Source: Antechinus flavipes (taxonomy: Eukaryota). From it: DNA of 64,000 bases. The notes below the pieces were generated by a model that was not told the origin of the DNA, searched no databases, and saw only the letters and a list, made by a program, of their open reading frames with translations. Of this stretch, positions 1 through 39,029 are shown piece by piece. Both the position numbers and the translations under genes were made by a program. Position 1 is the stretch's first letter; each line of letters opens with the position of its first letter. The stretch spans positions 40,734,001 to 40,798,000 of the forward strand of contig NC_067401.1 of assembly GCF_016432865.1 (NCBI RefSeq). Direction: 5' to 3'.

Positions 1-1383
1 AAGTTGGTCAAATTTCATTTATAATTTCTTGCAATATAGTGGATGGGTTTAGTTTTTCTTTTTTTTTATTATGACTTTGAGGGGATCAAATGACTCGAAA
101 TACTTTCCCCTCGAACTCTTCACCAGGTCATTTCTTTTTTGACATAAGAGAGCTTAAATTCTCTTTTACTTTTTTGATCTTTTTATTTTGTTCTAGTCTT
201 GCTGTCTCATAGGAATCATTGGTTTCTCTATATTTCACGGTATTATTCAAAGAATTTCAACTGGTTTTGCTTTATCATATTTTCTTCAAAGCTATTCTTC
301 CAATCCTCTATCATTTCCTTCAGTCTTTATATTAAACTTGAGTAGTTGGAGATACCAGTGAATCTCTTGTTACCTTGTATTCTCACCATTGTAATACAGA
401 GAATACTTTGTACTCTAATTTAACCTCAATTCTTAACTCCCCCCACCCCTATCTGGCTCCAAACGTTCCTCAACTGCTTTGAAACACTGAGGAAGGCATG
501 AAAAAATTGCCAAATGGATTCACTACAAATTGAGGCAGTCTAGTCCCTACTAGACAAAAATGGTGCAGGCAATACTTTTTATTCTTCCTGACTGGTCTTC
601 TATTACACGCTCTGTAGAAGTTATTCCAAACATTATCTGGCTTCAAACTTCCTCTTCTCTCTTTCAGCATAGATCATCTAATTTAAGAAAAGGAAAAAAG
701 AGGTGCATGTTAGGTAGAGGAATTTCATCTTTCCCTCCCCTTTCTTCACTCAAACCACTATCCCATCACTCCAAAATCCTCCAAACACATTATTGTTTAC
801 CTCCAAGTTCTACAAATCAATTCTAAAACTTGCTTTTCAACTATCTTTGGCAAACAAATTTTAAAAACTTTATGAAACACATTCGTAAACCATCGTGTTT
901 GGAGTTCTACACTAAAAATGACAGTGTTAAAAATAGGAGTTTAAAGGGAAGGAAGAGTTGTTTATTCTAGAACTGGGAGAGTAGAGGGGCGGGGCACTGG
1001 GATTGCGAAATAGGTTTTTTCCATAACGGAAAAGGCAGAGTTGAATCTGCCCCGGGGAGGTTTCGTAACCCTAAGGGATTTGTTAAGGAGCATGCGCGCC
1101 GAGCCTGCCGGGGTTAGGGGTGGAGCGTGGGGCGTAAGCAAAGGGGAGCCAGAGTCGCCAGGCAAAGGTCCAGGGAAAAGTTTTAAAGGAGGGCAAGCGA
1201 AAGTGTTTTCGTTTTTGTCACTTTTCTCTTTTCCGTTTTAAAATGCTTGGGTGCCGCGACTTTCCGGGGGAGGGCTGGGCGTGTGGGTCTCGGGGAGAAG
1301 GCGACTGGGGAGGGTAAGCGTAGAAGGCGAGCGCGAGCGCGTGGGGACGAGTGCGTAAGTTTTAAAGGACTTTTTGGCGCGAG

Positions 1384-1424
1384 ACAGCTCCTTTGAGAGA
1401 AGGTGGGTGGCTCTGAAAAGAGCC
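1384..1424 (-). terminator. H2B 3' stem-loop (1409-1424) and HDE (1384-1394)
   Basis: Minus strand GGCTCTTTTCAGAGCC-ACCCA, then AAAGGAGCTGT. Confidence 0.95.
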
Positions 1425-1462
1425 TTTGTTTCGGGGCGGGGGGGCGGCGCGAGCGACTCCGG

Positions 1463-1788
1463 NNNNNNNNNNNNNNNNNNNNNNNNNNNNNNNNNNNNNN
1501 NNNNNNNNNNNNNNNNNNNNNNNNNNNNNNNNNNNNNNNNNNNNNNNNNNNNNNNNNNNNNNNNNNNNNNNNNNNNNNNNNNNNNNNNNNNNNNNNNNNN
1601 NNNNNNNNNNNNNNNNNNNNNNNNNNNNNNNNNNNNNNNNNNNNNNNNNNNNNNNNNNNNNNNNNNNNNNNNNNNNNNNNNNNNNNNNNNNNNNNNNNNN
1701 NNNNNNNNNNNNNNNNNNNNNNNNNNNNNNNNNNNNNNNNNNNNNNNNNNNNNNNNNNNNNNNNNNNNNNNNNNNNNNNNNNNNNNNN
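1463..1788. other. Assembly gap (326 N) covering most of the H2B CDS
   Basis: N run; its size fits the missing CDS plus about 12 nt of UTR. Confidence 1.
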
Positions 1789-1855
1789 GAGCCTTGGTCA
1801 CGGCTTTCTTGGAGCCCTTCTTGGGGGCAGGGGCGGACTTGGCCGGCTCGGGCAT
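1475..1855 (-). CDS. H2B: Histone H2B, replication-dependent; only codons 1-23 are sequenced, the rest lies in an N gap
   Basis: ATG at 1855 reads MPEPAKSAPAPKKGSKKAVTKA(Q) into the gap 1463-1788. A 126-aa CDS would end at about 1475, inside the gap, so the end is inferred. Octamer and TATA upstream, stem-loop downstream. Confidence 0.85.
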
Positions 1856-2628
<773 letters not shown>

Positions 2629-2673
2629 GCCGACTCGGCTCCCGGGGCCGAAAGGCTCACTCCCGAAACCAAC

Positions 2674-2716
2674 GGCTCTTTTCAGAGCCACCCACCCCGT
2701 CAGAGAAAAGGGGCTG
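2674..2716 (+). terminator. H2A stem-loop (2674-2689) and HDE (about 2706-2716)
   Basis: GGCTCTTTTCAGAGCC-ACCCA ... AAAAGGGGCTG. Confidence 0.95.
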
Positions 2717-3633
2717 TTGCCGAACTTCCAGTTGCGTTCCCGATCCCGGTGGCGGCGTGACATGCCGCGTACGTACCCTAACCCTAAATGCGTCCCCCCA
2801 GTCCCGGCACGAACCGGAGCCAGCCCACTCGATAAACCCGAGCGGAGGCGACAAGTCCCCGCTTCCCTTAGCGAAGTCGGGTCAGCACCCCGGTCTCGCT
2901 CTCGCCTCGCCCCGTTGGCTACTCTTTCCCCCCCTCCCCCCCGGCCCGAAAGCTGTTGGTGTCAACGTCCAGTGCCACTTTATCCCGGAACGAAAGGCGA
3001 CCAAGTTTTGTCCAGCGCCTCGACGTACTGTACTTGTCAGAAACGACCGGCGTGTCCGACTGCCGTCCGCGGGGCGATGACCCCAGGGCGTCGGAAATCA
3101 CTAAAGTGCCCGTATCCCAAACTTTCCCTGGGATAACTCGGGAGCGAAGCTCCCAGCCAATCCGCCGCTTAGGCGGGCTTTTCGTTCGCAGTCCTAAGCC
3201 CCATACGCAAAGGAACCCTGAGAGGGGGGAACGGGGTGGTGGTGGTGGTGGTGACACCGTGGAGGGAGGAAGAGACGGGACTAAGGATGGTGGTGGCGGA
3301 AGAGTTTCTGGCTGCCGGTAGTAGTATCCCGCACCTTTAGGACTACTGTTGTAACGGGAGGGAGAAGGTGGAAATAAAACCGAAGTTCCTGGTTCTCGTC
3401 CTCCCGGAAGTGCCGGCCGGTGTTTTTTGAGCGGGCGTTGGGTGGGTGCCCTGAAAAGCCAAGGGCGTACCCTGGAGAAGCGCGGGAGGGTCAAGTGGGT
3501 GGCCGGCCGCGCAAAAATTCAGCAAACTAGTGGAAAGTTGGGGGACTCGATCGGGCACGGACACACGTCAGCGCCCCGAACGTTTGAGGTGTTCTTTTCC
3601 CGCCGAACAGAGGGAGAGGGCGAAGAGGAAAGC

Positions 3634-3711
3634 GGGGGGGGGGGGGGGGGGAGTCGGGGAGTCGGGGAGTCGGGGAGTCGGGGAGTCGGGGAGTCGGGGA
3701 GTCGGGGAGTC
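3634..3711 (+). repeat. G18 run plus (GGGGAGTC)x8 minisatellite
   Basis: Eight perfect 8-mers at 3648-3711, overlapping a G run at 3634-3651. Confidence 0.95.
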
Positions 3712-3894
3712 GGGGGAGGGAAGGCAAGGGGACCCAGAGTTAGCGGGAAAGGGACTGCACAACTAAAAAGCTGTGGGATGGAGTTTAAAAACACGGACTG
3801 GTTAATCAGAAAAGGCAGCGGTGGGAGAAAGGATGAAAAACCGAGACCTACTCAGCGAGCGGAGGTTTTTTCCGCGAGGGTCGAGCTGGGGTAG

Positions 3895-4590
<696 letters not shown>

Positions 4591-4627
4591 GGCGCCGCTT
4601 TCCGCCCGTGGAAGTCCACACCCCAAA

Positions 4628-4669
4628 GGCTCTTTTCAGAGCCACCCACGTTCTCACGAGAGTAGCTGT
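4628..4669 (+). terminator. H3 stem-loop (4628-4643) and HDE (about 4658-4669)
   Basis: GGCTCTTTTCAGAGCC-ACCCA ... GAGAGTAGCTGT. Confidence 0.93.
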
Positions 4670-4871
4670 GATCGCGCCCACCTCTCCCCCCTCCTTTGCA
4701 ACTTTGACTTGCTCCTGAGTTTTGCTGCATGGACAAAGGGAGCTTGCCGGCCCTTGTCGAGGCGAGTAGCCGCGAAAGGGCAGCTGCCGCTTGACCCCTA
4801 GTTTCTGTCCTTGGCCCCTGCCTCCCGACTCGGTTGACCATTGAGTGCGCGCACTGTGGGGAGGGCGGGCG

Positions 4872-4907
<36 letters not shown>
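4872..4907 (+). repeat. (GGCT)x9 microsatellite
   Basis: Read directly. Confidence 0.95.
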
Positions 4908-4962
4908 AGCCATTCGCTGAGGGCGGCGCTGCGTCCTTTTCCCCTTCCCTTCCTGCCGGGCT

Positions 4963-4996
4963 TGCATGCGCGCGCGCGCGCACGCACACGCACACA
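4963..4996. repeat. Alternating purine-pyrimidine tract, (CG)n/(CA)n
   Basis: TGCATGCGCGCGCGCGCGCACGCACACGCACACA, 34 nt. Confidence 0.9.
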
Positions 4997-5406
4997 AATC
5001 GGGAGTGGAGCATGCAAGTAACTATAAAAACAATATTAAACTGGCGATCCTGGGGAGAAAGGAAGAAGCCAAAACGCCCCTGCTTGCCCCAAAGCACACA
5101 CAGACTTGGGGCCAAAAAGAACCCTCCCTCTGCTTGGGTCATGTCAGACTTGGTCAGCTAGGCGGGGCGGGGAAGACGACCGGGGCAGTCACATAAGCCG
5201 CCCCCAATATACATATAAATGGGGGTGGGGGCGAACATTGGGATGGACATATGCTACTTGGAATTAAGAGGATTTTTGTAGCTGCTTTTTTTATTTTTTT
5301 TTTCATTTTTTTTTTTTTTTTGCGTTTTTATTTACTCATTTGGGTGGGCATTTATTTCATTAAAAATCACAATGGTTTCTCCAGAGACGGATGGGGTCGG
5401 GAGGCT

Positions 5407-5448
5407 CAGCTCTTTTTCTGAGGCGAGTGGGTGGCTCTGAAAAGAGCC
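5407..5448 (-). terminator. H1 stem-loop (5433-5448) and HDE (5407-5417)
   Basis: Minus strand GGCTCTTTTCAGAGCC-ACCCA ... AAAAAGAGCTG. Confidence 0.95.
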
Positions 5449-5480
5449 TTTGGGTGGGTCAAGTTTCGAGGACTAGCTCT

Positions 5481-6140
5481 CTACTTCTTGGCTGTCGCCT
5501 TCTTGCTTTTGGCGGCTTTGGGCTTCGCCGTCTTGGGCTTGGCCACCTTCTTGGCCTTGGCCGCCTTGGGCTTAGCCGGGCTCTTGGCCACCTTCTTGGG
5601 CTTGGCCGCCTTGGCCTTCTTCGGGCTCTTGGCCGCTTTCTTGGCGGCTGCCGGCTTCTTGGCTTTCTTCGGGCTCTTCTTCACCGTCTTCTTGGCGCCC
5701 GCGGCTCCCGTCGCCTTCTTGGGCTTCTTGGAGGCACCGGCAGCCTTCTTGGTCTTGGCCGAGGCCGGCTTCTTGGCCTTAGTCTTCGTGTCGGCCGTCG
5801 GGGCCTTCTTGTTCAGCTTGAACGAGCCCGACGCGCCGGTGCCCTTGGTCTGCACCAGGGTCCCTTTGCTCACCAGGCTCTTGAGCCCCAGCTTGATGCG
5901 GCTGTTGTTCTTGTCCACGTCGTAGCCCGCCGCCGCCAGCGCCTTCTTCAGGGCTGCCAGGGACACGCCATTGCGCTCCTTGGAGGCGCTCACGGCTTTC
6001 GTGATCAGCTCCGACACGGGCGGACCCGCGGCCTTGCGCCGCGCTCCCCCGGCGGCCGAAGCCCTCTTGCCCTTTTTCTTGGCCGGCGCTTTCTCCGCGG
6101 GGGCCGGGGCAGCGGGAGCGGCGGGGGCCGTCTCGGACAT
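5481..6140 (-). CDS. H1: Linker histone H1, replication-dependent somatic type (219 aa)
   Basis: [18 protein letters not shown]-terminus, globular domain [12 protein letters not shown]...[14 protein letters not shown], Lys/Ala/Pro-rich tail, intronless, with stem-loop. Confidence 0.97.
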
Positions 6141-6231
6141 GGCAGCGAAGGGAGACCGTACAGCAGCGACAGCGAGAAGTCACTAGAGGACGCCGCGGAC
6201 TCGCGAATAAGCGAGCTCCGCGCTGACCCAC

Positions 6232-9400: not shown

Positions 9401-11344
9401 CCCTGACCAGGTGCCAACGTCCCGAGAGGAATCCCAGTGCACCGGTTTCAGGTCTGGGCTGGGAGCCAGGAGGATCTGGGCAGCAGTCCCACTGTAGCTG
9501 CTTACTGGACCAAGGTCACTTCTCTTGACCTCTTTTCCCCTCCCCTCTCAGATGAAGGGCTCGGCACTTAATGGCCTCTTCAATATACCCTTTGACCCTC
9601 CCATCCTGTGACCACATTGAGGGTGAAAGATTCAGCTCTGCTCTACTCTTGGGATGATGTGGGGCGATCCACAGCCCCCAGCACTAGAACACAGAACACA
9701 GCGCCTACCCCCACGGTGTCCATGGACTTGGTGCCCTGGAAAGAGGCACCAGCCTCATTCCCACCGGCCCTCTGGACAACCAGCAGCTGAGGTGAAGAGG
9801 AGGACCCAGTCGAGGCTGGAGGAGGATCTAGGGCAGACCCTCGTGGACACATTTCCCTGGAAGTTCAGGCTGGTCAACCCTCTAGGGAGCCCAGTGTTTT
9901 CCCAAGGTGGGTTGCACAAATCCTGGGGCCAGGCAGAGGCCCACTGGAAAAGATGCACACCTTGCTCTGACTGTGATGACGAATGGATCTGATTACGTCT
10001 CCTTTGCACTTGGAGAGGTGGGGAAGAGAGTTCCCTCTCCGTAAAGGCTCTTCTATAGTCAGTATTCCCTCAGGCAACTGTCTTGGGCAGTTGGTGGCAG
10101 AGTGGACAACTCCTGGACCAGCACTGTCAGCAAGACCAGACTTCAAATCTGCCTTTTGATTTGAATAGTCCCTTGGTCTTATAAATTTGTGTCAATTCCC
10201 CATGTACCCTAGTTATTAGACATATCAGACTTTTATTCAGGATATGTGGACAGATTTTTTTCACCACTTTATTCTTTCCCTCCTTGTCCTAGTTACTTTG
10301 ATTTTGTTTTTATTTTATATAATCCAGATTGTCTTTTTGTCTTTTATATTTTGTCTTTTTTGTTTTTTAGAATCTTCTCTTATCTTGATTTGTGAAGGAC
10401 TTTCCCATTCCTATCCAGGATAGTGCAAAGTACCTCCATATGTTCTCTTCTTTTTTTTTTTTTTTTTTTTTTTAAATGTACTGACCTTTCATATAGAGCT
10501 GAAGTATTGACATGGGGTGTATTTTGATATATGATAGAATTGCTGGTCCATATTCAATTTCTGCTGAACAGTTTCCTTTCAGTTTCTGTCTAAAATGGAG
10601 ACCTTCCTCCTGGTTTGTTTTTTGTTTTTTGTTTTTTTTTTTCCTGTGGCTGATCAACAGTTGTGCTTTCCTTCACTATGCTGTATTACTTTTGGTCTTT
10701 GCTTATGTAATCTTTTCCTCTGATTTACTTTTCAATATTTTAAAATAAAACCAAATAATTCTTTGAAATACAGTTTGAAAGCTAGTTATAGGTGTATTCT
10801 TTTTTTTTTTTTTAAACTAATGTTTCATCTCATGTCCTTCCTTGGCATTTATATTGGTATTATATAAAATCTGAAAATTTAAGTAGCACAGTCATTTTCA
10901 TTAGATTAGCATAAACAAACTGAACAATTATTTTTTTCCAATTTTCAATTTTCCTTTATAGCTGTTGAAACAAAACATACTTTGATAATGTCTTTATAAA
11001 AGACTCGATTTAATAGATTATTTTGAGTGGAACTTCTCTTTTCAGCAATCTTTATTTTCATTTGTAGAAATGCTATTTTCTGGATTTCTTGAATCTTGTA
11101 ATTTTCATGAATATATTAATCATTTAATTTTTTCACTGATTCTCTGGATTTTTTCAAGTTAACCATCATTTGGTCTGTAAACAGGGAGATATTCTCGCCT
11201 TAAGTTCATTTTCCCAATTTGTTGCTCTAGTTAACATTTTTGGAACTATATCAAATAACACTGGTGATGAGATCATCTAGTACAGAGTTCTAATTGTTAG
11301 GAATATTTTCCTGAAATCAACTCTAAATTTTCTAAATTCCTTCT

Positions 11345-24789: not shown

Positions 24790-26772
24790 ACTGGTTCTCA
24801 TCCTTGCCCTTTTAAAATCATCAGTCTAATTCCTTGCATAGTTTTTATCTTTAATCTGATCATTTTGGCGATGGCAGTTTGCACTATATTCGTGATCAAT
24901 TTGATCATGCATGGGAGGCACATAGGAATCAATACAATTCCACTAATGGCTACAAGCAGGAACCACAAGGCCTGTTTCCACCAACTATCTCCAAATCAGG
25001 ACCATCAAGACATATTAAAAGATGACTGCCAAGTTTGTACAGGGACCCGTGCTAACTTCCGAATGTCTTGCATAATTTCTTTTACCACAGCCCTGTTATT
25101 GTCTATTCTCATGCAACAATTGGATAAGTTGAGTTTCTATATATACCTCCTTCCTCAGCTAAGAGATAGTCTAATACTAATCTATGTGGTAATACTGCCT
25201 TTCAGGTCTGAGTGGTTTTGGTCAGCCAACAAGTCAAGAGCCTTAGCTGTTTGGTTGGTGATAACTTCAACTACTGCCTGGAGCCTAATTATCCTATTTA
25301 GCATATATATAGGGGTCCTATATCCCCACCTTCTATCTTGAGCCCAAGTTGCAGCCCCATAGGTCTTAATGATTCTCTCAGGTGGCCACATCCATTAGCT
25401 TCTCCAGATTGAGTAATAAAGGTATCTATGTTCCTTCTAGGCCTGTCCAATTCCTCATTTAGTGGAACACCCAGTTGATTTCCAGGTAGAATTTCTCAGG
25501 TAGAAAAAAAGATTCTTTGTCTAACTAGCCCAATATAAAGACTCCGGTCCAATTTAATGGGAGGTGTGTGTAAGCTGTCTCCCCACAAATCCAATAATGC
25601 CCTTTCAAGGCAAGGGAAATATATAGGTAGATTCTCATTACCTAAAAATTCAGATAAATGGCTAACACTGCTATTCTTGAACCAGAAGCACTTCTACAAC
25701 CCAAACCTTTCAGCTGATGTATCCTATTGGACCCCTCTAGACAATCCAGGGCCTTGTATCATTCTGGGTAGAATTACACTGCAAACAGGTGTTGTGATTT
25801 GAGCTATTCAGGCAGAGAAGTTTGGCCAAGAAGCACAGATTTGTGTTCTACCACTGCTCCATAGATCCACTCACATTTACTAACTTCAATCAGATTTTCC
25901 TTTCCTCCTTGCTTTAAGCAATATTCTCCTCATTCTTCAACTGCTAACTCTTGGTAATGTCTTTCTTTAGCTCCCAGAATCCAGTGCCATTATGAATTAA
26001 AGAAAAATTGCTTAGTAACCACTCAGGTCTGAGAGGTATGGGACCAAGTTGGGGCTCTCCACAGATCCAGCAATCGGTTACATTAAAAGTACTAGCAATA
26101 GTTTGTATTAGAATCTGAAAGGTGTTGCCCTCCCATGGTGCACCAGGAATCAGCCTAGAGGAGATCAGCAGGTAGAATACCAGTAAAGTCAAAAACGCCA
26201 ATGATCCCTCCTCCCATCCCCTCCCTCCTCTCCTCCCCCCCCCCCCCATCACAAAGGATCTTATTTTATCTAAATCCAGTTATAGTGCCCCAGATTAACA
26301 CACAAGGTATTCATTAATTTTCCTTCAGACCCACCTCAGGTGGACACAGAGTCTATCTGTGGGCTCAGGATCTACTATCCATTCTTCCGTAGAAGAAACT
26401 GGTCCTTTTATCAGGGTGTGATGAATCCAACCGTGTTACTACTGTGTTCTTACAGCAATGTCTGAGGTCAAAAGGACTTGGAAGGGTCCTTCCCAGGTTG
26501 GGGTCAATTTTTCCTCCTCCCAGGTTTGAATCAGGATCCAGTCTCCAGGCTGGTATTTGTATACAGCAAATTCTAAAGTAGGGTCTGAGCAATAAGTCCT
26601 TTTAATTACAGTTCATGTAAATGCTTAACAAGTCGTAAAATATATTTTCTAATAAACAAGTCTTTGGTGTCCCATACAGGTTCTATACTTCTTTGTCTTC
26701 TTCCTCCAGGATATGAATGTCCACATAGGAGTTCATAAGGTGACAATCTGATATCCCTCCGAGGTTTAGTCC
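24790..26772 (-). mobile_element. Class I ERV copy 1a, 3' part: integrase C-terminus and ERV3/HERV-R-like env; decayed
   Basis: IN PGDWILIQTWEEEKLTPTWEGPFQVLLT; SU start with CWIC (25944-26252); [23 protein letters not shown] and [13 protein letters not shown] (25141-25183). Confidence 0.88.
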
Positions 26773-29700
26773 TGTTTGGGTTCTTAGCCCAAACTCCTGA
26801 GTGACGCGGATCATATATAACCAGCAATGCCCGGTGACTAGAATGACGAAGACCATGAGTAATGAGGGGCAAGAGGCAGAATGTTGAAAGATTCCGTTTA
26901 TTACAAAAACAGCAAGCCCTTTTCTCTTCTCAGTATATGCTTCTAGTTCCTATAGCTTAGCGTAGGCACATTCTAGCCAATAATAGCAGATATATGGTTC
27001 CCTATATGGTGATCTATAAGAAGCTACACGTAAGTACAAAGTGAACATTCCTTTCCTAATAAGGTATGTGGGTATTGTTCTCTCATCCTGGATTTGGCAT
27101 GCCTCTCCCAAATCTGCCACACTGTTTCTCGGGTGGGACCCCTTCCTCCCAACTCCATCTTGTTCACCCTTATAAGGCCACCCTCAGTTTACTTGAACTG
27201 CGCCTTATGCGATGTCCAAGGCTGGTGGGGGGTTGGCAAGTCCTCTAAAATTCCCCCTTTTTTGTTTTTATGTGACAGTTCCACAAGCTTAAATTTTTGT
27301 GCATTAATAGCATACCAGATGGAGGTTAATACAGATCTCAAAATCATTGGTAGTAAACACAGGGTTGCTACAATTACCAACATAATTGCTCCTAGAGTGA
27401 TTCCAAATTGTTTCAAATGACCTCATGGGTCAGCTTATTGATAAAATGAGATGATTTTTTTCTGTAACATCACTGGGTCAAATTCTTTGGTCAATGGTTT
27501 GATCAATACTATCTACAATTTGAGTCAATCTACTTGATTCATAAGAAACATTTCCCCAACTTAATCCATGTAATTGAGTCCTAATTATCTCCCACTGTAT
27601 GTGTGTTTCATTATATATTGCATCCGTTAAACAATATTTATTGTATCTATAATCACATTGTAATTCTTGCTGTAATTCTAAATATTGCACCTCTTCTCCT
27701 AAAAAACTGGACTGCCTTTTGTAATCTAGGTATAGCTTCATAAAATTCCTCATCAACCTTTAATTGTCTCCTAAATCTGGCTGATACATTTTTCCTGGCT
27801 TCTGTTATTTGGTTTTGAGTGTTAGATATAGATAAAGTAAATGCTGTGGTGACTACAATAGCCTCAGCTAATTAGGTTATTCCTAATATAACACATGATA
27901 TATGCTTTTTGTCCTAGTACCTAGTTCATTCATTTTTTCTTGTAAGGCCTCAAAAATATTATCACTACAGGTACAGTACCAGGAGTTTGCTTTCACAATA
28001 GTTAAAGTGTAGTGGAGATGAGCGACTATGTACATTCTCCCCTTGAATTTTGGCCCAATGCAGGTTTGTACCTGACATCTAATACATGTCAAATTGAAGA
28101 TTCCTTCTCTATATGTTGTGATTCTAGACATGTTGTTTTTATCTACAAGAAATGCATAGCTTTTTCTAGACAAACTCTGACAGTCAGAGTGACATTGCTT
28201 GTAACATTATTCCTAGGGTAAATTCTCACTAATTCTGGCATCCCTTGTACTGTCACGCCTCCTACAGCAGCAACTGCTTTCTCTATACCTTTTATTTCCA
28301 GCCCTGAATTATGAATGTATTTCAGTCTTGGATATTCTACTACCTGTACATGCCCATATGTACATGGTGGTGTTACGATAACAGACTAAAGACTCAGTAT
28401 TAGTTCTCCTGCCTTAAAGTGATTTGTGCATACTGATGCATGATGCACTCCTTAAAAGGCATAAAACCTGGATAATGGTACATTATTGATAGGTTGTGGG
28501 GAAGGATGCTATTACAGAATTTGCTATGCCTGTTGTTCAACCAATTATTATATTTGCTGAGAGGAATATCTTGACCTTCTAGTCTCTAAGTGTACAAGTG
28601 ATATCAGTGCATGCTAATGGATAAGGTACCTGCCTCTGCTCTTATGGATGTGTCCTCTAGATACATGACACCATCCCTTAGTGAAGCACACTAATCCACT
28701 AAACCTATACTATTTCCATAGTATTATCACTTATCCCCTGTCCAAACTCCCCCATTACTTTTTGGGTGCATAATGGTAGCCCCTTGGTTAGTCCTGTAAA
28801 ATTAAATGTCTTGTTGAATGTCATTGATTGTTTGTTGTCTGAGTCCCATTCAAAACCACCCTCTTTAAACATATGGCATAGGTTACCATATCGAATAAAT
28901 TCTGGCATAGTCTCTGTCCATGTGAGCACTTTTAGCCAAGGGGGGAATGGGATGAAAGCCCATCTATGTGTCTGCTTGATGCTTTCAGATGTCAAGATGG
29001 GAGCTATTCCTATCGTTATCAGGATGCTGCTGAGTATTCTGCTGATGATCTTCATTTTGTATGTTGCTAGTTTTGATCAGTTCCATTAGGTGCTTTTTTC
29101 TCTTCTTCACACGCTGCCTCTTTCCCTGTGATTTCTTTCCCATCGTGCAGTACGTGGATTCTTCTCACTGGAATCCACTTTTCTTTTTCTCTTGTGGAAA
29201 TACAAAAATACTCTTTTCCCCATATTAGCACTGTATGTGGCCCATGCCGTTGTTTCTCATGATCTCTCCATATGACCCTCGCTTCTGTTGTGGAGTTCTC
29301 TTTTCTCTTTTTACTTTCAAATTTTGTAACTGATATTTCATGGCTGGAAATAGACCTTTGTCATCAAATTTTAAATAGTTTATCATATAAACTGCTGTTT
29401 GTAATTTGTTATGAATAGATCCATGAACTTTTTGTTTTTCAAGGTAGATCTTGAGAGTCTGATTATTCCATTCAACAATAATCAGCCCTGTCTGATTATG
29501 GGGGATCCTTGTTATATGTTTAATATGGTATTTGAAACAGAATTGTTGGAAAAATTTTGAAACATAGGTGGGGCTGTTATCTGTTTTTAATATTCGGGGA
29601 ATGCCATGATTAGCAAAACAACACATTAAATAACTAGTGACATATTTAAATGATTCTCAGGTTTATGCTGAAGCCATCAAGAAACCAGAGAAAGTGTCTA

Positions 29701-31845
29701 CACATAAGTGAATACATTTGTTCTTTCCAAAGGAATTGTAATGAGGACTATCCATCTGCCAAATATCATTGGGAGCGTCTCTTTTTGGGTTTTGTAACTG
29801 CAACTTTTGATGGTGGGAGAAAAGGGACACAATTTGTGCACTGTTTTCCTATCTGTCTGGCCTGTTCTTCGGAGATTCCATATAACCACCTTAATGATTT
29901 TGCAGAGAGGTGGTATTTATTGTGGCCTTGTGCAGCCAGTGTGTTTTTCATAGTCAGCCTAGCATGTCTAGGAGATACATTTGTAACGTCTGGTCTGTGA
30001 TACTGTTTCCTTCTGCTATTGGACCGGGGAGGTGAGTGTGAGACCTGAGATGACAAATATAAAAACAAGACTGTCTTTTTCCTCTTAGTACTTTGTGCCT
30101 GTTGTAATAATTGTGTTATATTGTCTTGCTTATCTGAAATATATGCTATCTCAAGCTGAGGGATGAGAGCTGCCACATAAGAACTGTCTATAACAATGTT
30201 AGAAGTTTCGTCAATTTCTAAGGCCTTGATAAGGACCCACAATTAATTCTGCTGGGTTGAAGTGAAATGGTTTGAAATTTGTATAATTGTGACCTGCTGG
30301 AAATATACATTGTGGCCCTTTTATCTTTAGCGGCAACAGTGAAGATGTTTATTCCTGTGACTGGCACTTCCATATATTTTGCAGTCCAAATCTAGGGCCA
30401 TTCAGTCCATTGTCTCTCGAACCTCAAAATGTTTCCCTGTTGTAAATTCAAATTTGCAATAATTTGCCATTCAGTTGATGTTTGTATGCATTCCTAAATC
30501 TGATCATTGGTATATGGAAGGTATATGATCTCAGATGAGATCTTTTGCCCCGTGATAGAAATTTTTCTATTCCTCTGTTGTTATAGACCAGAACTCTGAA
30601 CTTGAAACAAAGGAGTTTTACAAGATGTTAAGTCAATAGAATTGATAGAGACAATAGTTACCTAATTTAGCATGGTTCAGTATGATTGATTTACTCCTAC
30701 AAGGAGATGTCATGGGCCAGAACTTGAAACAAGGTAATAAGTGGAATTGAGGAGACAATGTTAAATCTAGTTTAGTACTGATTTAATCCTACAACAAATA
30801 ACGGTTTCCTAGTGATATAATGATTGGTTTGGACTCAGTGTGGAGCATATAAGCTAGAAGCTCTCAGGGCCAAAAAAGACAAATGCACTAGAAGCTCACA
30901 GAGGCTGAGACAGATTCATTCCATCGTCCACCTTTCATCCAACTTTATAGTGGTTGCAGGCTGAAACACAAACCTTTGGATAAGGAGAGATTCAGAGCTC
31001 TTGGAACCAAGATGAGAAATAGGACTATAAAAAAGCTAACCGGGCCCCAGTAAAGGAGACAAGACTTTGAAGGAGACAATAAAAGATTTGGACTTTAACT
31101 CCTGGCGACTCTTGTGGTGATTACTGAACTGGAATGAAGGCTGCTCCCAGAGATCCCAAGAAAACTGAAACAAGAGAACATTACACTCTGCTATTTTGGA
31201 CTTCTGCAGGGTTACTCACAGTTTAGTAATCTCCCATCTCCCAGGGGTCAAAATGCGTGTCTTCTCACCTGTTCCGTGAGGCACCTTCTGGGGAGGGTGG
31301 ACATTTCTCTTGCTTTTGCAGCAAGCTTCACATTGGTCTCCCACACTGTCCTTCGCATGAGATGACTTTAGTGGATCCCTGCTATGCACAGGGCTTGGGG
31401 GTTCTACACACAGGATTAGGAGAGGCTCACATTGGGTGCCAGACCATTTGGGTTCTCGGCCCAAACTCCCAAGTGATCAGAAGTGCCTAGTCACCTGAAT
31501 GGCGAAGACTGTGAGTAATGAGGGGTGAGAGTCAGGATGTGGGAAGACTCCGTTTATTATAAGCCCAGTAAGTCTTTTTATATGCTCAGTATATGCCTTT
31601 AGTTCCTATAGCTTAGCATAAGCACATTCTAGCCTATAATAGCAGATATATGATTCCCTATATGGTGATCTTCAGGAAGCTACATGTAAGTACAGAGTGA
31701 GCATTCCTTTCCTAATAAGGTATGTGGAATCTCCCAATCCCAGAACTGCCATGTTGCTTCTCAGGTGGGACCCTTTCCTCCCAATGCCATCTTGTTCACT
31801 CTCATAAGGCTACCCTCAGTTTCTTGAGCTGCACCTTGTGGTCCC
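26773..31845 (-). mobile_element. Class II (beta-like) ERV copy 2: LTRs, Lys PBS, RNase H/IN and beta-type env; gag-pro-RT deleted
   Basis: 3' LTR about 26773-27249 with PPT AAAAAAGGGGGAA; TM ELQCDYRYNKYCLT; SU WAFIPFPPW (28705-29055); IN LKTDN (29225-29626); PBS TGGCACCCAATGTGAGCC 31424-31441 (decayed tRNA-Lys CTT type); 5' LTR about 31445-31845. Confidence 0.9.
30579..31185 (+). mobile_element. Solo LTR nested in ERV copy 2
   Basis: TG...CA termini, 6-bp TSD CTCTGT/CTCTGC, AATAAA near 31078, internal duplication of the U3 start at 30708. Confidence 0.88.
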
Positions 31846-32310
31846 AAGACCTCCAGAAAGCTAATCAGAACCTTACATTTTGGCATCCGAACATGGGACT
31901 AAAGATTTACACTCAGAAGTCCAGACTGACACGATCCTGAGTTCAGTGGAAAAGTCTCCGTGACCCAGAAATTAGGGCGAGTATAAAAATAGACAAGAAG
32001 GCAACTTTGTTAAGGACTAAACTAGTGTTTCAGCTGAAATAGGACAAATGTTTAGAAAGAAGATTTCTCCAGCTCAAGGAAAATGTGTAGAGTACATAGT
32101 TAAACTAATAAAAAACCAAGGTTTGATTGTAATGTGGGAGAAGATCACTGGACTTTTAGAAACATTACAGTACTTGTCTCCTTGGTTCTCAAAGGAAGAA
32201 GAATTAGAGCCAGATGAGTGGAAACTAGTATGAGAGCAAGTAATCAAATATTTCAATGATAATGGTGCTGATTTAATTTCTAAAGAAACATTCTATATAT
32301 ATATATATAG

Positions 32311-34677
32311 CTGCCATGAAGCTTGCCAAAGATCTCTCCTGTATTCTGGAGTCCAGAATCTCCAGCCTCTCTCCTCTTTGTCCTGCCCCCAAGTGACTCT
32401 GGCCTCTGTCCCTCTGCTCTCCAATACTTGCCTATGATTATCTTAACACCAAACATTCAGCAATCACCAACAGTGAGAAGAGCCATTTATCCAAACATAT
32501 GCTAATAGAGTCATAGTCTCACATCAACTGGCTAATTAGCCTTAAATGCTTGCTTGTCTGATTCAAGCATACCTTTTTGGAGTTTCAGCCCTCTACATCT
32601 CCCGCTTTCTTTTGTTTTAGAACACAGATGGTCACACCCTCTCTGACTTCTTAAAGAGGTGAGAACCCCAAAAAGGAGATGATCACATTCCCCCTGACTT
32701 CTCAGGAAGGGAGGTGAAAGCACTAAAAAGGAGATGATCACACCCTCCCTGACTTCTCAGGAACAGAGATGAAAATTACCAAAGGGAAGTGGGGAATCAA
32801 GCCTGATATTGTTAGCGAGTTTCTGGGCTGAAGGGTTTTACTAGAAACAGGTATGCACAAACTCATCAGCATGGGAGGTATTACACAAGCACATAGCAAT
32901 AAAGCACAGGGTAGCAGTGATGACTCTCCTCATGGCCGGTGCAGGCTCAATGTGGTGTAACAAACATGAATTGTACATGTAAGTAGTGATATTACAATAT
33001 GAATCAACATGGTATTATAAAAGATTTCCAGAAGTCCTAGAAGAAGGATATGTAAACAACAGTCATACATACGCCTTCTTCAGCAGCCAAGAAATAGTCC
33101 AAAACCAATCTATTGTCCATTGCTTCACATGTTAGGGAATCCAATATCCCTGCAAGTTTTTGAAGTCCTGCAACAGTCTTTTTACGTGTTAGGGAATCCA
33201 ATGATTCTTACAGATTTTGAAGTCCTGCAGCAGTCTCATCATGTCTCAGGGAATCCAATGATTCCTGAGGGTTTTAAAGTCGTACAACAATCTTTTCACG
33301 TCTCAGGGATTCCAATGATTCCTGAGGGTTTTGAAGTCCTGCATGAGTCTCATTAACAATTTTTGATATCCATGAGTCAATTGCCATAATTGCTATGCTC
33401 TTTCAGTGGTGGGCACAATCAGCGATAGACTCACCCGATGTTTCTTGGGTCTTCTCCTTTGGTTCAAGTGTCTGCTCCATTTCTCTCTGATGGACAAGGC
33501 GAATACGGCCCATTGGTACCCATCTGATTCCTTCTCCATCTGTAGAGACACAAGAAAACCCTCTCCCCCAAGCAGTTAACCTATCTGGTCCCTTCCATTC
33601 ACCACTTTCTGGATCTCTCCATATCACCTGGCAATTATCTAAAGATAGTGGAGCTACTTGCACTGGACACAGCCCTTCCAGTGGGTTATAAAACCTGTTT
33701 GTTGGAGCCAGTGTATTTTTGTCAAAAATCAGGAAATTAATTGTATAAAGAGTTAAATTCAGAAGTTCTCTAGGGTTACCTGTGGCTCCCCCTTTCTTTT
33801 GTTTTTGGAGGAGTATCTTGATGTCTCTGTTTCTCCTCTCTACTATTGCCTGTTCTTGAGGATTAAAAGATATGCCAGTGGTGCGTAAAATCTTATACTG
33901 TGCACAAAAGTGTGCAAAATGTTTAGAAGTATATGTAGGTCCATTATCTGTTTTAATTGCTTGTGGCATACCTATAATTGCAAATGTTTGTATAAGGAAT
34001 TCATTTATTATTGTATTATTCACATAGTTGATCTACTAGCTTCCAATTATCTGCCTCTATTTCTTCTTCCTTGAAGAACCAAGAAGACGTGCATTCTAAT
34101 GTATCTAAGAGTCCCTTGCCTCTTTATTAATCTGATATGCTTCCTGTAGAGCTTCTTCAGGGTGGGGGAGAATCTTTTCCTAATATCTGCCCCATTTCAG
34201 CTAAAAAATGAGTTACTAGTTTAGCTCTTAACAAAGTAAATTCCCTGTTTGTCTATTAAAATACCTTATTTCCTGGTCACAGGGATTTCTTCAGTGAAAT
34301 TTGGATCCTTGGTTCGCGCCAAATGTAGAGTATGGGCTAGCTCCCTGGAGGGCCTCAGGGTCAACCAGAGTCAGGATAAATTAAAGTCGTTGGTCTTTAG
34401 GAGGAGAAGTGAAAGAGGCAGGCAAACTGCCGCGCGGCTTGCCAAAGATCTCTCCTGGATTCTGGAGTCCAGAATCTCTAGCCTCTCTCCTCCTTTTCCC
34501 TCTGCCCTCCAATCCTTGCCTATGATTATTAAACATTCAGCAAGCACCAACAGTGAGAAGAGCCATTTATCCAAATATATGATAATAGAGTCACTGTCTC
34601 ACATCAAATGGGTAATTAACCTTAAGTGCTCTGTTGTCTGATTCAAGCATACCTTTTTGGAGTTTCAGCCCTCTACA
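32311..34677 (-). mobile_element. Class II ERV copy 3, internally deleted (about 2.4 kb): 5' LTR, PBS, MA stub, IN, env TM stub, PPT, truncated 3' LTR
   Basis: 5' LTR 34324-34677; PBS TGGCGCGAACCAAGGATC 34304-34321; gag ATG 34195; IN IKTDNG...WKGPD (33403-34023); PPT 32598-32614; 3' LTR 32311-32597. Confidence 0.92.
33037..33387 (-). pseudogene. env TM remnant with a 4 x 19-aa heptad-region expansion and the immunosuppressive domain; two internal stops
   Basis: Manual translation MAIDSWISKIVNETHAGLQNPQESLESL...AMDNRLVLDYFLAAEEGVC...; 57-nt period (33134, 33191, 33248, 33305). Confidence 0.8.
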
Positions 34678-35884
34678 ACATAAGTTTTAGAATTAGGAAA
34701 AAGGAGAAAGAGCAGAAGGAGGATACTGACAAACTAGGTGAGAAGCATAAAGAATTAGACAAAAAAGAAGTTAAGTACATTGCTGATTAAATTAAGGAAT
34801 ATGGTGCTTCACAGCAGGAGCCATTAGGGCATTCCCCATCCCCTGACCTACCCCCCTCAATTAACCCTTCATGGGTGGAGGGAGAAGGAGAGGAGGGAGG
34901 GATAGTGACACAATCAGCACCATCTATGAAGCAGCTTTGTCCACCCCCTGTGACAAGATTACAAAAAGCACTAATTAAAAGTAAAAAAGGACAGGATATA
35001 TCTGATTTAATAGACGCATACCCTGTTATTCAAGAGTTTGACTCTTCAGGTCAACAAAGGAGAAGATACACTCCTTTTGATCTAGAAATTATCAAAGATT
35101 TGAAAAAGGGTTGCATTCTTTATGGGGCTACATCTTCTTATGTTAAGATATTAGAAAATTTAGCTTATCACCCCTAGTGATTGGAAATCTATAGCACAGA
35201 CATATTTAGAACCTGGACATAACTTGTTGTGGCTTTTGGGGTGCAGTGAACTATATAGAATACAAGCCCAAAGAAATAAGCAAACTGGAGTTAATATACA
35301 AATCACCTTTGACCAACTAGCAGGTAAAGGTCAGTATGCAGATGCTTTAGCACAGATTTAGCACCCTTTGATAGCATATGAGCAAACTGCTGATGCTGCT
35401 ATAAAAGCATGGGGTACCCTCCCAGGAAAGCAAGATAGAGGGGAAGTCTTCACGAAAATAGAGAGCAAGGTCCAAATAAACTCTTTGCTGATTTTGTGGG
35501 ATGTCTGCAGACAGCTGTCATATGAAGAATTGGTGAAAATGCAGCAGCAGCAAAAATGATAAAAACAACTTGCTAGAGAAAATGTTCATGAGGTTTGTAA
35601 GAAGAATTATACTGGGACTACACAAGGATGCTCCTTTAGAGGCGATCATAAGATGCTGTGCCGTAGTGGGCACAAATGCCTTTTATACCTAGGCTATGAT
35701 GCAGAACATGGGAAGACAGGGTCCTTCTTGGCAAGGGACTTCCAGAGAGACTCATTGATGGTAAAAATGGTAATGTGGTAAATTGTGGTAAAATGTGATA
35801 AATGTAGGGCATCTGAAAGCTCAATGTTGGCACAGAGAAAGAGTGAGAAGACAGGATGAGAGAACAAGTCACAAAGTGCAAACT

Positions 35885-38500
35885 GCCCCAGAGTCCACCA
35901 AAAATACCACATATTCATCTTGTGGTCCCACTCTTAAATTTATCAAGGGCTCTGGATGGGATTTTTCAAAGAACTCCTGCCTCCCTAATCTTCAAGTTCC
36001 ATGAGGGAACAGACTTGATCTTCCTTCCATTGGGAACAATTCCTGGAAAGATGGCCACTTCTCCCACAAGTCCAGCATGTTAATAGGCCTCTTATTCTTT
36101 GTCTCCCTTCCTCCCCACCTTGGGAGAATCTTGCTCTCCCTTTATTCTGTTGGAACTTTTTATTTACTTAGTCAGGATTCCATCCTCTCCCATGTCCCTT
36201 TGATTCCAGTATGATCTGAACCAGCTTTTTAGCCTCTTATCTCTCTGCTTCTCTCTCGTCATCTCTTCTCTCATACACTTTTGTAGCCTCTTTCAGTAAT
36301 TCCTTTAAGGGCTTGCAACCTCATCTTTCTAATTTCTGCAACTTCTTATTAATGTCTGGCCATGAGTTGCAAACAAAATGTAATTTTAGTATACTTTCCC
36401 TTACCAGATCCTCTGGATCCAATTCTGAGATTCCTGAATCTTTTAGTCATTCTAAGAATTTAGAAGGGGATTCATCCTTTTCTTGCATAATTATTTCTAA
36501 TGCCTTATTAATATTGGGCTTTGGAAATGAGTTCTTAATCCCAGTAATGATTAGCTCTCTTAGATCTTGCATGTTCTGTCTATGGACGGGATTATTATTA
36601 TCCCACTCTGGATTAACAAGGGGAAACTTTTGTTCTGCTGTCATCACCCCATCTGTGAGCAGGTAATGTCTTTCCCATTCTTCCATGGCTGCTTTTCTAA
36701 TTGCTACTCTCTCCTCTTGGGTGAATAACATGTTCAATATATGTAGGAGCTCACTCCAGGTATAAACACTTAGTCCCCCAAACTGGTCTGTTTGGAGGCC
36801 CCTGCGGAGTCCTTTGTGATAGATTTTAAATCCCTTTTGAAATTCCTAATCTCAGTCCAGGTCAAGGGGGCATTAACAAACCTTATTCCCCCTTGTGGTC
36901 TCCCTAAAGGAACCTCTCTGAGAGGATACAGTTTGATTTTCCCAGTCTCAGGCTTTGTAAAAGAAAGATTTTCTACAGCTTTCCTCAGTTCCAATTTCCT
37001 CTCATTCCTTCCTCAATGTGTCCTTCCTTAGTTTCTGCGACTCCCAGGGTCCCCAGATCATTAAGAGGGGGCTCAGTTGGTCCAGATTGCTCCACTGAGG
37101 GAGCCTGTGGGAGCCCTGCTGCCACCGGAGGTGCTGAGGATGGCAGAGCACAGGGAGGCGAGATGACACATGGGGGATCTCCAGCTTTGTTACCGGTGGC
37201 TTATTCACCTTTTTTTGACTCAATAAAAGCGTCTCAGTCCCTAAACCAGAGACTTGCATAAATTGCTGCCTCTAGATTAAAGGGATCTTTTTCATTTACA
37301 TATAAATTCAATTGTTGGCATACCCAACCCTCAGCGCACCCATATCTTCGCCAAACTACTCCTTTGCCAATGTTTTCGCCACCCCATACAAAACAACAAT
37401 TATCATTTTCTTCTTTTCCATTATATTTTGGTAATTCATTCCAGTTCTGTAACCTATTCCCCAGGGGGCTCTTAATCAGGACTTCCTCATATTGCTCCTG
37501 ATTTGGGGGTTTGGACTCCACTTTCCCCATAATTTGACAAGGACAGTTTTTAGACTCCTCTGTATTCCAAATTATCCCAATCGTGCCCTATTGGGCACTT
37601 GATAGGTTCTCAGAGAGTCCTTTCCACCCCTTCCCTCCCCACCCCCCCAGGGTCGTTTGCAATCCATTTCACCACACAATTTACGTTAGAGGCTCTTTTT
37701 CTCAGATCTCCCTAGATCCAGCCAATTGATCCCCAGATTTCCTAGTGCTTACTTTCTGGTTACAAGAGTGTAGGTTCTCCTGACGGCAAATCAATCAACA
37801 TCTGCACACAGAGCTTCGGATCAGTCACTTTTACTTTCTCCTTCACCGAGTCTCTTCTCTTTGTGCACTTTGCTGCAGTAGAGAAGTCTCCACCCCGAAG
37901 ACCAACAAAACACAGTCCCAAGGTCTCCCGCCTGCAAATAGGGGTGATGGGTGTTCTGCCGAGCCACGTGATCCCGGAGTCACGTGATACCCCCAAACTG
38001 TATGGAGTGGGAGACCCTAACTCAAAATTGATTACTTAAAGACCTCTCAAAATGAAGGTAGAAAGTTTTATGAGAATCTCCAGAGAAGCGGAAATCCAGA
38101 ATGAGGAAAAGCCGAAATTACAGTAAGGAGAGTGACTAAATAAACAAGCACTGCCCAATCCCTTCCGCAAACCCCCTTATACAAAGCTTTTAGTCCAGAT
38201 TGGTTGTTACTTTTCCTTATTTAGTGGGTGGAGTGATAATAGACTGATTAGAAATGAGCCAACCGTACAACTTCTAAAAGTTATTTTAAAGTCACATTAT
38301 TTCTAGGGAAACAAAACCAAAACCAAGGCTCAAGGTTTCGTATATTTCAGCAGATTGTCTGAAAAACCATTACTTGCTCCAGTTTCACTAAAAAAATCTT
38401 ACCTAAAAAATGCCCTCATTGATCCTAGCCAGCTTGAGCCGATTTAAATCGGGACGCTTTCATCGAGAACTTGGCGATTTAGCCAGTTTCTTGGCTCACG
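35885..38500 (-). mobile_element. Class I ERV copy 1a, 5' part: 5' LTR, PBS, gag and protease start
   Basis: LTR U5 end at 37999, TATA near 38180, CCAAT near 38200 (U3 start uncertain); gag MGKVESK at 37530; CA-like PLVNPEWDNN and QEKDESPSKFLE; protease FLVDSGA at about 35885-35910. Confidence 0.82.

Positions 38501-38657: not shown

Positions 38658-39029
<372 letters not shown>

Follow-up and report, generated by a model that had tools for sequence, protein, structure and literature searches.

A tandem array of variable length ahead of a probable class I env remnant in a deleted element assigned to the marsupial betaretrovirus MEBrv 3

Marsupial endogenous betaretrovirus 3 (MEBrv 3) has been described as a class II endogenous retrovirus (ERV) of dasyurid marsupials that has lost its env gene (Harding et al. 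2024, PMC11334065). According to that report MEBrv 3 accounts for a mean of 67.5% of the ERVs in dasyurids, and 8,535 of the 12,900 devil ERVs fall in its clade. A class I immunosuppressive domain (ISD) located beyond the end of pol has already been published for MEBrv 3, and so has the inference that recombination brought a gamma-type env into a class II ancestor (PMC11334065). The ISD and the CX6CC motif are given as the features that define gamma-type Env (PMC9967133). In the type-D betaretroviruses (MPMV and SMRV, as well as MEBrv 1 and MEBrv 2) class II gag and pol are likewise combined with a gamma-type env, but these viruses keep the full gene, whereas MEBrv 3 has only a scrap of it, for which a separate recombination event was inferred (PMC11334065).

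The sequence studied here is an env stub on the minus strand (33037..33387) of the 64-kb stretch of DNA that was analysed (the window). It sits in a 2.4-kb LTR element on the same strand, which has suffered an internal deletion. The element begins with a 354-bp 5' LTR with TG...CA ends (34324..34677, minus strand), next to which lies a primer-binding site (34304..34321, minus strand), presumably of the tRNA-Lys type, with the same position and, by eye, a similar start as in the representative MEBrv 3 sequence of the published supplement. A broken 5' stub of gag (matrix; 34019..34195, minus strand) is followed by a deletion of ~4.3 kb. Judged by eye from the representative's Gag and Pol, the deletion comprises the remainder of gag together with pro, RT, RNase H and the N-terminus of integrase. 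What remains of pol (33403..34002, minus strand) is the end of the integrase core and the integrase C-terminus up to the pol stop (33403-33405). This segment was 83% identical to P0002. In Pfam it matched the families IN_DBD_C (E 3.9e-12) and rve (E 1.5e-06), which bears out the assignment to class II made in the earlier sequence-only reading of this DNA.

The 3' untranslated region contains a second tandem array (32626..32783, minus strand, 55 nt x 2.9), which by eye is also present in both published copies. By its position this array is a candidate cis element; its folding z was only -0.82. Just after it comes the polypurine tract (32598..32613, minus strand) and then the 3' LTR (32311..32597, minus strand), whose last ~100 bp are missing. 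The two LTRs were identical in 222 of 241 aligned columns (K2P 0.083), and the insertion is therefore not recent. The element splits a decayed, related gag copy of the opposite orientation (31880..35860, plus strand), which gave a weak match to Pfam Gag_p24 (E 0.011) and by eye resembles the Gag of the MEBrv 3 representative.

The surroundings of the element (24900-37600) are a stack of nested ERVs beside histone genes. Besides two MEBrv 3-related copies, the stack includes a class I gag (36447-37587, Gag_p30 E 1.6e-10), a class I env with an ISD (~24900-26280) and a class II element whose LTRs lie at 26822-27209 and 31478-31840. The histone gene cluster occupies 1200-6200 and 38658-39029, where we take the open reading frames to be H2B-, H2A-, H3-, H1- and H4-like. 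The window also contains a tRNA-Ser (53469-53550) and a tRNA-Gln gene (62119-62190) and another tandem repeat (61215-61367, 71 nt x 2.2, 90% matches).

Comparison by eye with the representative sequence showed ~161 identical residues out of 199 (~81%, ungapped) between the integrase of the window element and the end of the published Pol, and 30 identical residues out of 34 between the ISD and the final stop. The two sequences also have in common the context of the AUG after the pol stop, the ISD, the final stop, the 55-nt array, the polypurine tract and the absence of an env ORF. The representative, a recently active copy of ~7.3 kb, is described as having intact gag, pro and pol and identical LTRs (PMC11334065), whereas the window copy is 2.4 kb long, lacks RT and has LTRs that are 92% alike. 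The LTRs resemble those of the representative only in part (by eye), and they likely represent another LTR subfamily. Parts of the element were contained in 20 of the 24 listed sequencing runs (7 organisms), none of which held more than 0.39 of its words, and in each of three runs from three organisms between 14,575 and 23,566 contigs matched the element stretch. On these sequence comparisons the element is assigned to MEBrv 3, as a copy of a family with a high copy number in several related species, and its host is accordingly taken to be a dasyurid. It is a defective copy and not an autonomous, recently active MEBrv 3.

The minus-strand frame 33037..33387 consists of 116 codons and a stop, and agrees exactly with the translation proposed earlier. 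Its AUG lies 15 nt past the pol stop, in the pol frame, and the translation is interrupted by two internal stops, at codon 38 (33274-33276) and codon 60 (33208-33210). Most of the stub is taken up by a tandem array (33134..33353, minus strand), for which TRF reported a period of 57 nt, 3.8 copies, 78% matches and a score of 264, so that the repeat noticed in the sequence-only reading was confirmed. The four units shared 39-46 of 57 nt in pairwise comparisons, and the unit was absent from the rest of the 64-kb window with up to 20 mismatches allowed; the array is therefore real. In this copy the AUG, the repeats and the ISD are in one frame and the steps are exactly 57 nt.

The array had been interpreted as a fourfold amplification of a heptad helix, and this part of the interpretation failed. 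Residues 12-101 of the stub showed no 3.5-residue periodicity (power 1.4), the best a/d register had hydrophobic residues in 9 of 26 positions, against 27% overall, and there are prolines at residues 21 and 40. Peaks did occur at 3.8 and 4.75 residues, but both fall on harmonics of the 19-residue period. A coiled coil was thus rejected for the repeat array, which lacks the heptad signal and whose 19-residue period cannot hold a heptad register. Variable columns among the four units were spread evenly over the three codon positions (8, 9 and 7), and pooled pN/pS was 1.52, a value derived from a small sample of four mutually non-independent units. Differences between the units do not show purifying selection.

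The stub contains an ISD-like motif (33067..33120, minus strand) extending from Met90 to the first Cys (Cys107); in gamma-type Env TM the ISD has ~17 residues and is directly followed by CX6CC. Pfam gave no match to this stretch up to E 1. The best matches among solved structures were to syncytin-2 TM (E 0.4 and 0.59), weak but in the correct register: the alignment runs from the end of HR1 to the first Cys, and the last repeat unit aligns to the HR1 end. The claimed likeness to the class I envs of the window holds in that 10 of 16 residues match, by eye, those of the ISD in the class I env located at ~25150-25190. On its own the ISD-like stretch is weak. Compared with gamma-type Env TM proteins such as syncytin-2, the stub shares the ISD-like stretch with the end of HR1 just ahead of it, but has no SU, signal peptide, fusion peptide, complete CX6CC or HR2, and its frame is broken. 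The earlier statement that SU and fusion peptide are missing is thus correct and extends to the CX6CC motif, of which the first Cys alone is in frame, and to HR2, no trace of which was seen before the final stop; nor was a signal peptide visible in the stub translation.

A Cys pair is found 8 nt past the first Cys in a shifted frame, and it is followed by 44 open hydrophobic codons (32930..33061, minus strand, the Cys pair at the start), which are possibly a membrane-anchor remnant. Of 2000 shuffles, 228 attained the best 19-residue hydropathy of this segment (1.95) when any frame was allowed and 73 in a given frame; against any frame the value was not significant. The Cys-pair motif recurs at 33289, 33232 and 33175 in register with the repeats. 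Because of this recurrence and of the 228 shuffles, the segment is kept as a weak lead only.

In searches of 5.8 billion protein sequences, taken from collections that barely cover unannotated marsupial DNA, none of 741 candidates scored for the stub, and neither did any of 122 longer ones when the query was confined to the final 56 residues, which are unbroken. A lone match among 1.84 billion sequences, a tandem-repeat protein of a shrimp, was rejected as an unrelated repeat artefact.

Three whole copies were available for reading the array and the frame: the window copy and two from the supplement of PMC11334065, in which units, steps and stops were counted by eye. The representative has 11 units separated by steps of 43 nt (eight times), 57 nt and 49 nt. 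The second published copy is reversed within the MEBrv 2 record, the end of which (~nt 9700-11106) is a reverse-oriented 3' fragment of MEBrv 3; the 5 units of this copy are spaced by steps of 54, 43, 57 and 58 nt. Thus 9 of 10 steps in the representative and 2 of 4 in the other copy are not multiples of three. The sequence-only reading had named a variable number of repeats as support for its proposal, and the array is family-wide, occurring in all the copies read with 4, 5 and 11 units and a mixed period in the published ones.

The AUG and the final stop of the stub are common to both published copies. The AUG frame of the representative ends after 39 codons, with at least seven stops ahead of the ISD; its AUG and ISD Met are in the same frame modulo three, which has a one-in-three chance of occurring. 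The copy in the MEBrv 2 record is already interrupted at codon 8 and also has the codon-38 stop of the window copy; its AUG and ISD Met are 293 nt apart and out of frame. In both published copies the repeat frame hits a stop just ahead of the ISD. The frame from the AUG to the ISD is consequently open in 0 of 3 whole copies, while the 27 codons from Met90 to the stop are open in 3 of 3. Of the five base differences between the ISD codons of the window copy and those of the representative, four change the residue. Other short duplications in MEBrv 3 are the 55-nt array and, by eye, those at the gag end and in the LTR of the representative.

Four of the 24 runs, namely the RNA run X24 and three contig sets, were aligned to 32800-33700 at 80% likeness; the statements on variants refer to 40 of 391 substitutions, 12 of 24 indels and 15 of 302 joints. 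X24, which is possibly from another species, contributed 3,887 aligned reads out of 13.1 million records. Since 4 of these 3,887 reads were at least 99% alike, the reads derive from other copies. At position 33145, 294 of 454 reads (96 starts) exceeded the window copy by one base, and another 81 ended loose there. With the extra base, repeats and ISD no longer share a frame. A further 92 reads turned loose at 33287 and lacked the first unit. For four joints inside the array the inserted letters were listed; their net losses were 61, 113, 115 and 54 nt, with the frame kept in one of the four. The codon-60 stop was missing from most X24 reads, 430 and 420 of 468 differing at two of its bases. 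In the contig sets the longer form at 33145 was seen in 17, 24 and 33 contigs, which corresponds to depths of 1,250 of 93,337, 3,626 of 136,761 and 2,610 of 175,914 (1-3%), but the contigs break at this position and the share of the longer form in them is therefore ambiguous. A subfamily having the window's frame may exist.

First mates of X24 fell ~9:1 on the plus strand, which means sense RNA in most stranded libraries, if X24 is stranded. MEBrv 3 is transcribed across 32800-33700 in X24; the main text of PMC11334065 contains no expression data. Over the 27-codon ISD frame the read depth was ~500. A start of spliced or subgenomic RNA was not seen in X24 over 32800-33700, neither as a pile-up of molecule starts nor among the 15 of 302 joints listed.

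Very probably, then, the stub is a broken class I env remnant in a 2.4-kb deleted MEBrv 3 copy, with an array of variable length that likely grew and shrank by copying errors and that likely makes no protein. The claim that the class II element at this locus carries a remnant of a gamma-type env is supported, and such a remnant was already published for MEBrv 3 (PMC11334065). The sequence-only reading had gone further and proposed that the family may have encoded a non-fusogenic coiled-coil/ISD mini-protein of 116 amino acids, captured from a gamma-type env and then expanded. It was considered here in the form that the family, or a subfamily, encoded this protein and that selection drove its expansion. 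The single frame shared by AUG, repeats and ISD in the window copy, with its exact 57-nt steps, would fit such a protein, as would the AUG and final stop retained in both published copies and the absence of one of the two stops (codon 60) from most copies in the reads. Yet none of the three whole copies is open, the codon-38 stop recurs in an independent copy, and in most RNA reads the ISD is out of frame. The pN/pS above 1, the missing heptad periodicity with a unit length that breaks the register, the broken CX6CC and the lack of a visible signal peptide point the same way, and we regard the 116-residue protein as very unlikely. Frameshifts within the family and neutral-looking divergence, which had been put forward as the outcomes that would speak against it, are largely what was observed. 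Because the published copies break the frame and 294 of 454 reads are one base longer, the continuous frame of the window copy is likely a minority state.

It is also conceivable, though improbable, that one of the arrays, of 57 nt or of 55 nt, is kept as a cis-acting RNA element that would assist the envelope-less genomic RNA in its export, packaging or 3' processing, in which case the frame would be irrelevant. In betaretroviruses and IAPs the export elements lie between pol and the 3' LTR, where both arrays are located; both persist in the two published copies and also in the window copy, despite its loss of ~4.3 kb of coding sequence, and the family is transcribed over this stretch predominantly on one strand. 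Against this, retention may merely reflect closeness to the polypurine tract, the unit number ranges from 4 to 11 with a variable period, and the predicted folding was no better than that of shuffled sequences (z -1.39 for the 57-nt and -0.82 for the 55-nt array). A search of the arrays against Rfam returned two weak sub-threshold matches, neither near the gathering score. Still less is to be expected of the idea that only the last 27 codons matter, as a micro-peptide that some transcribed copies would make from the ISD's own Met. This short frame is open in every copy read, is embedded in a well matching stretch (30 of 34 residues, by eye) and has a high read depth, but an 84-nt stretch is often open by chance, most of the base differences from the representative (4 of 5, by eye) alter the residue, and neither a signal peptide nor, with 15 of 302 joints listed, a spliced or subgenomic RNA start was seen. 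Repurposing of the env scrap in either way, with the array as a cis RNA element aiding envelope-less spread or with a 27-residue ISD micro-peptide made from thousands of sense-transcribed copies in cancer-prone dasyurids, is improbable.

For the preferred explanation, decay of an env remnant, the following course of events can be envisaged. A class II ancestor would have acquired a gamma-type env by recombination, as already suggested by others (PMC11334065). Before the family amplified, a deletion would have removed most of this env and spared the end of HR1, the ISD and a Cys motif in shortened form. A piece of ~57 nt ahead of the ISD would have undergone repeated duplication, expanding and contracting irrespective of frame; template slippage during reverse transcription or unequal exchange is the probable cause. 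As the family retrotransposed, the scrap would have been a passenger in the 3' untranslated portion of its genomic RNA. The single AUG-to-ISD frame of the window copy would result from its being one base shorter than the common form, which is likely an accident.

MEBrv 3 and its ISD remnant are already known, and the window copy is one more defective member. The variable array was not found in the main text of PMC11334065, where the word "tandem" occurs 0 times, although Fig. 4a or further parts of the paper might show it. Nor was it found in the openly accessible literature searched, which included PMC4408412 and in which only PMC11334065 names MEBrv 3. Three small additions, none of them found in the text searched, are made here: a variable tandem array ahead of the ISD that is usable as a subfamily marker, transcription of MEBrv 3 across this region with a probable sense bias in a single RNA run, and a clear example of what is likely a chance in-frame fusion mimicking a mini-gene. 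As it stands, the stub matters little; should the array or the 27-codon frame prove functional, this would be relevant to immune modulation in dasyurids and to the way in which ERVs lacking an envelope turn into superspreaders.

Among known systems, the IAP-like envelope-less ERVs share with MEBrv 3 the loss of env followed by high copy number through retrotransposition, a comparison made in PMC11334065. They are of a different lineage. With co-opted env genes such as the syncytins and pan-Mars-env2, the stub shares an ISD-bearing, env-derived sequence in a marsupial. The syncytins and pan-Mars-env2 are single loci with open frames that are under selection, and a co-opted env gene is recognized by an open frame kept across copies or species, purifying selection, expression of the locus and an orthologous location. 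The stub differs from these genes in being one among very many decayed copies.
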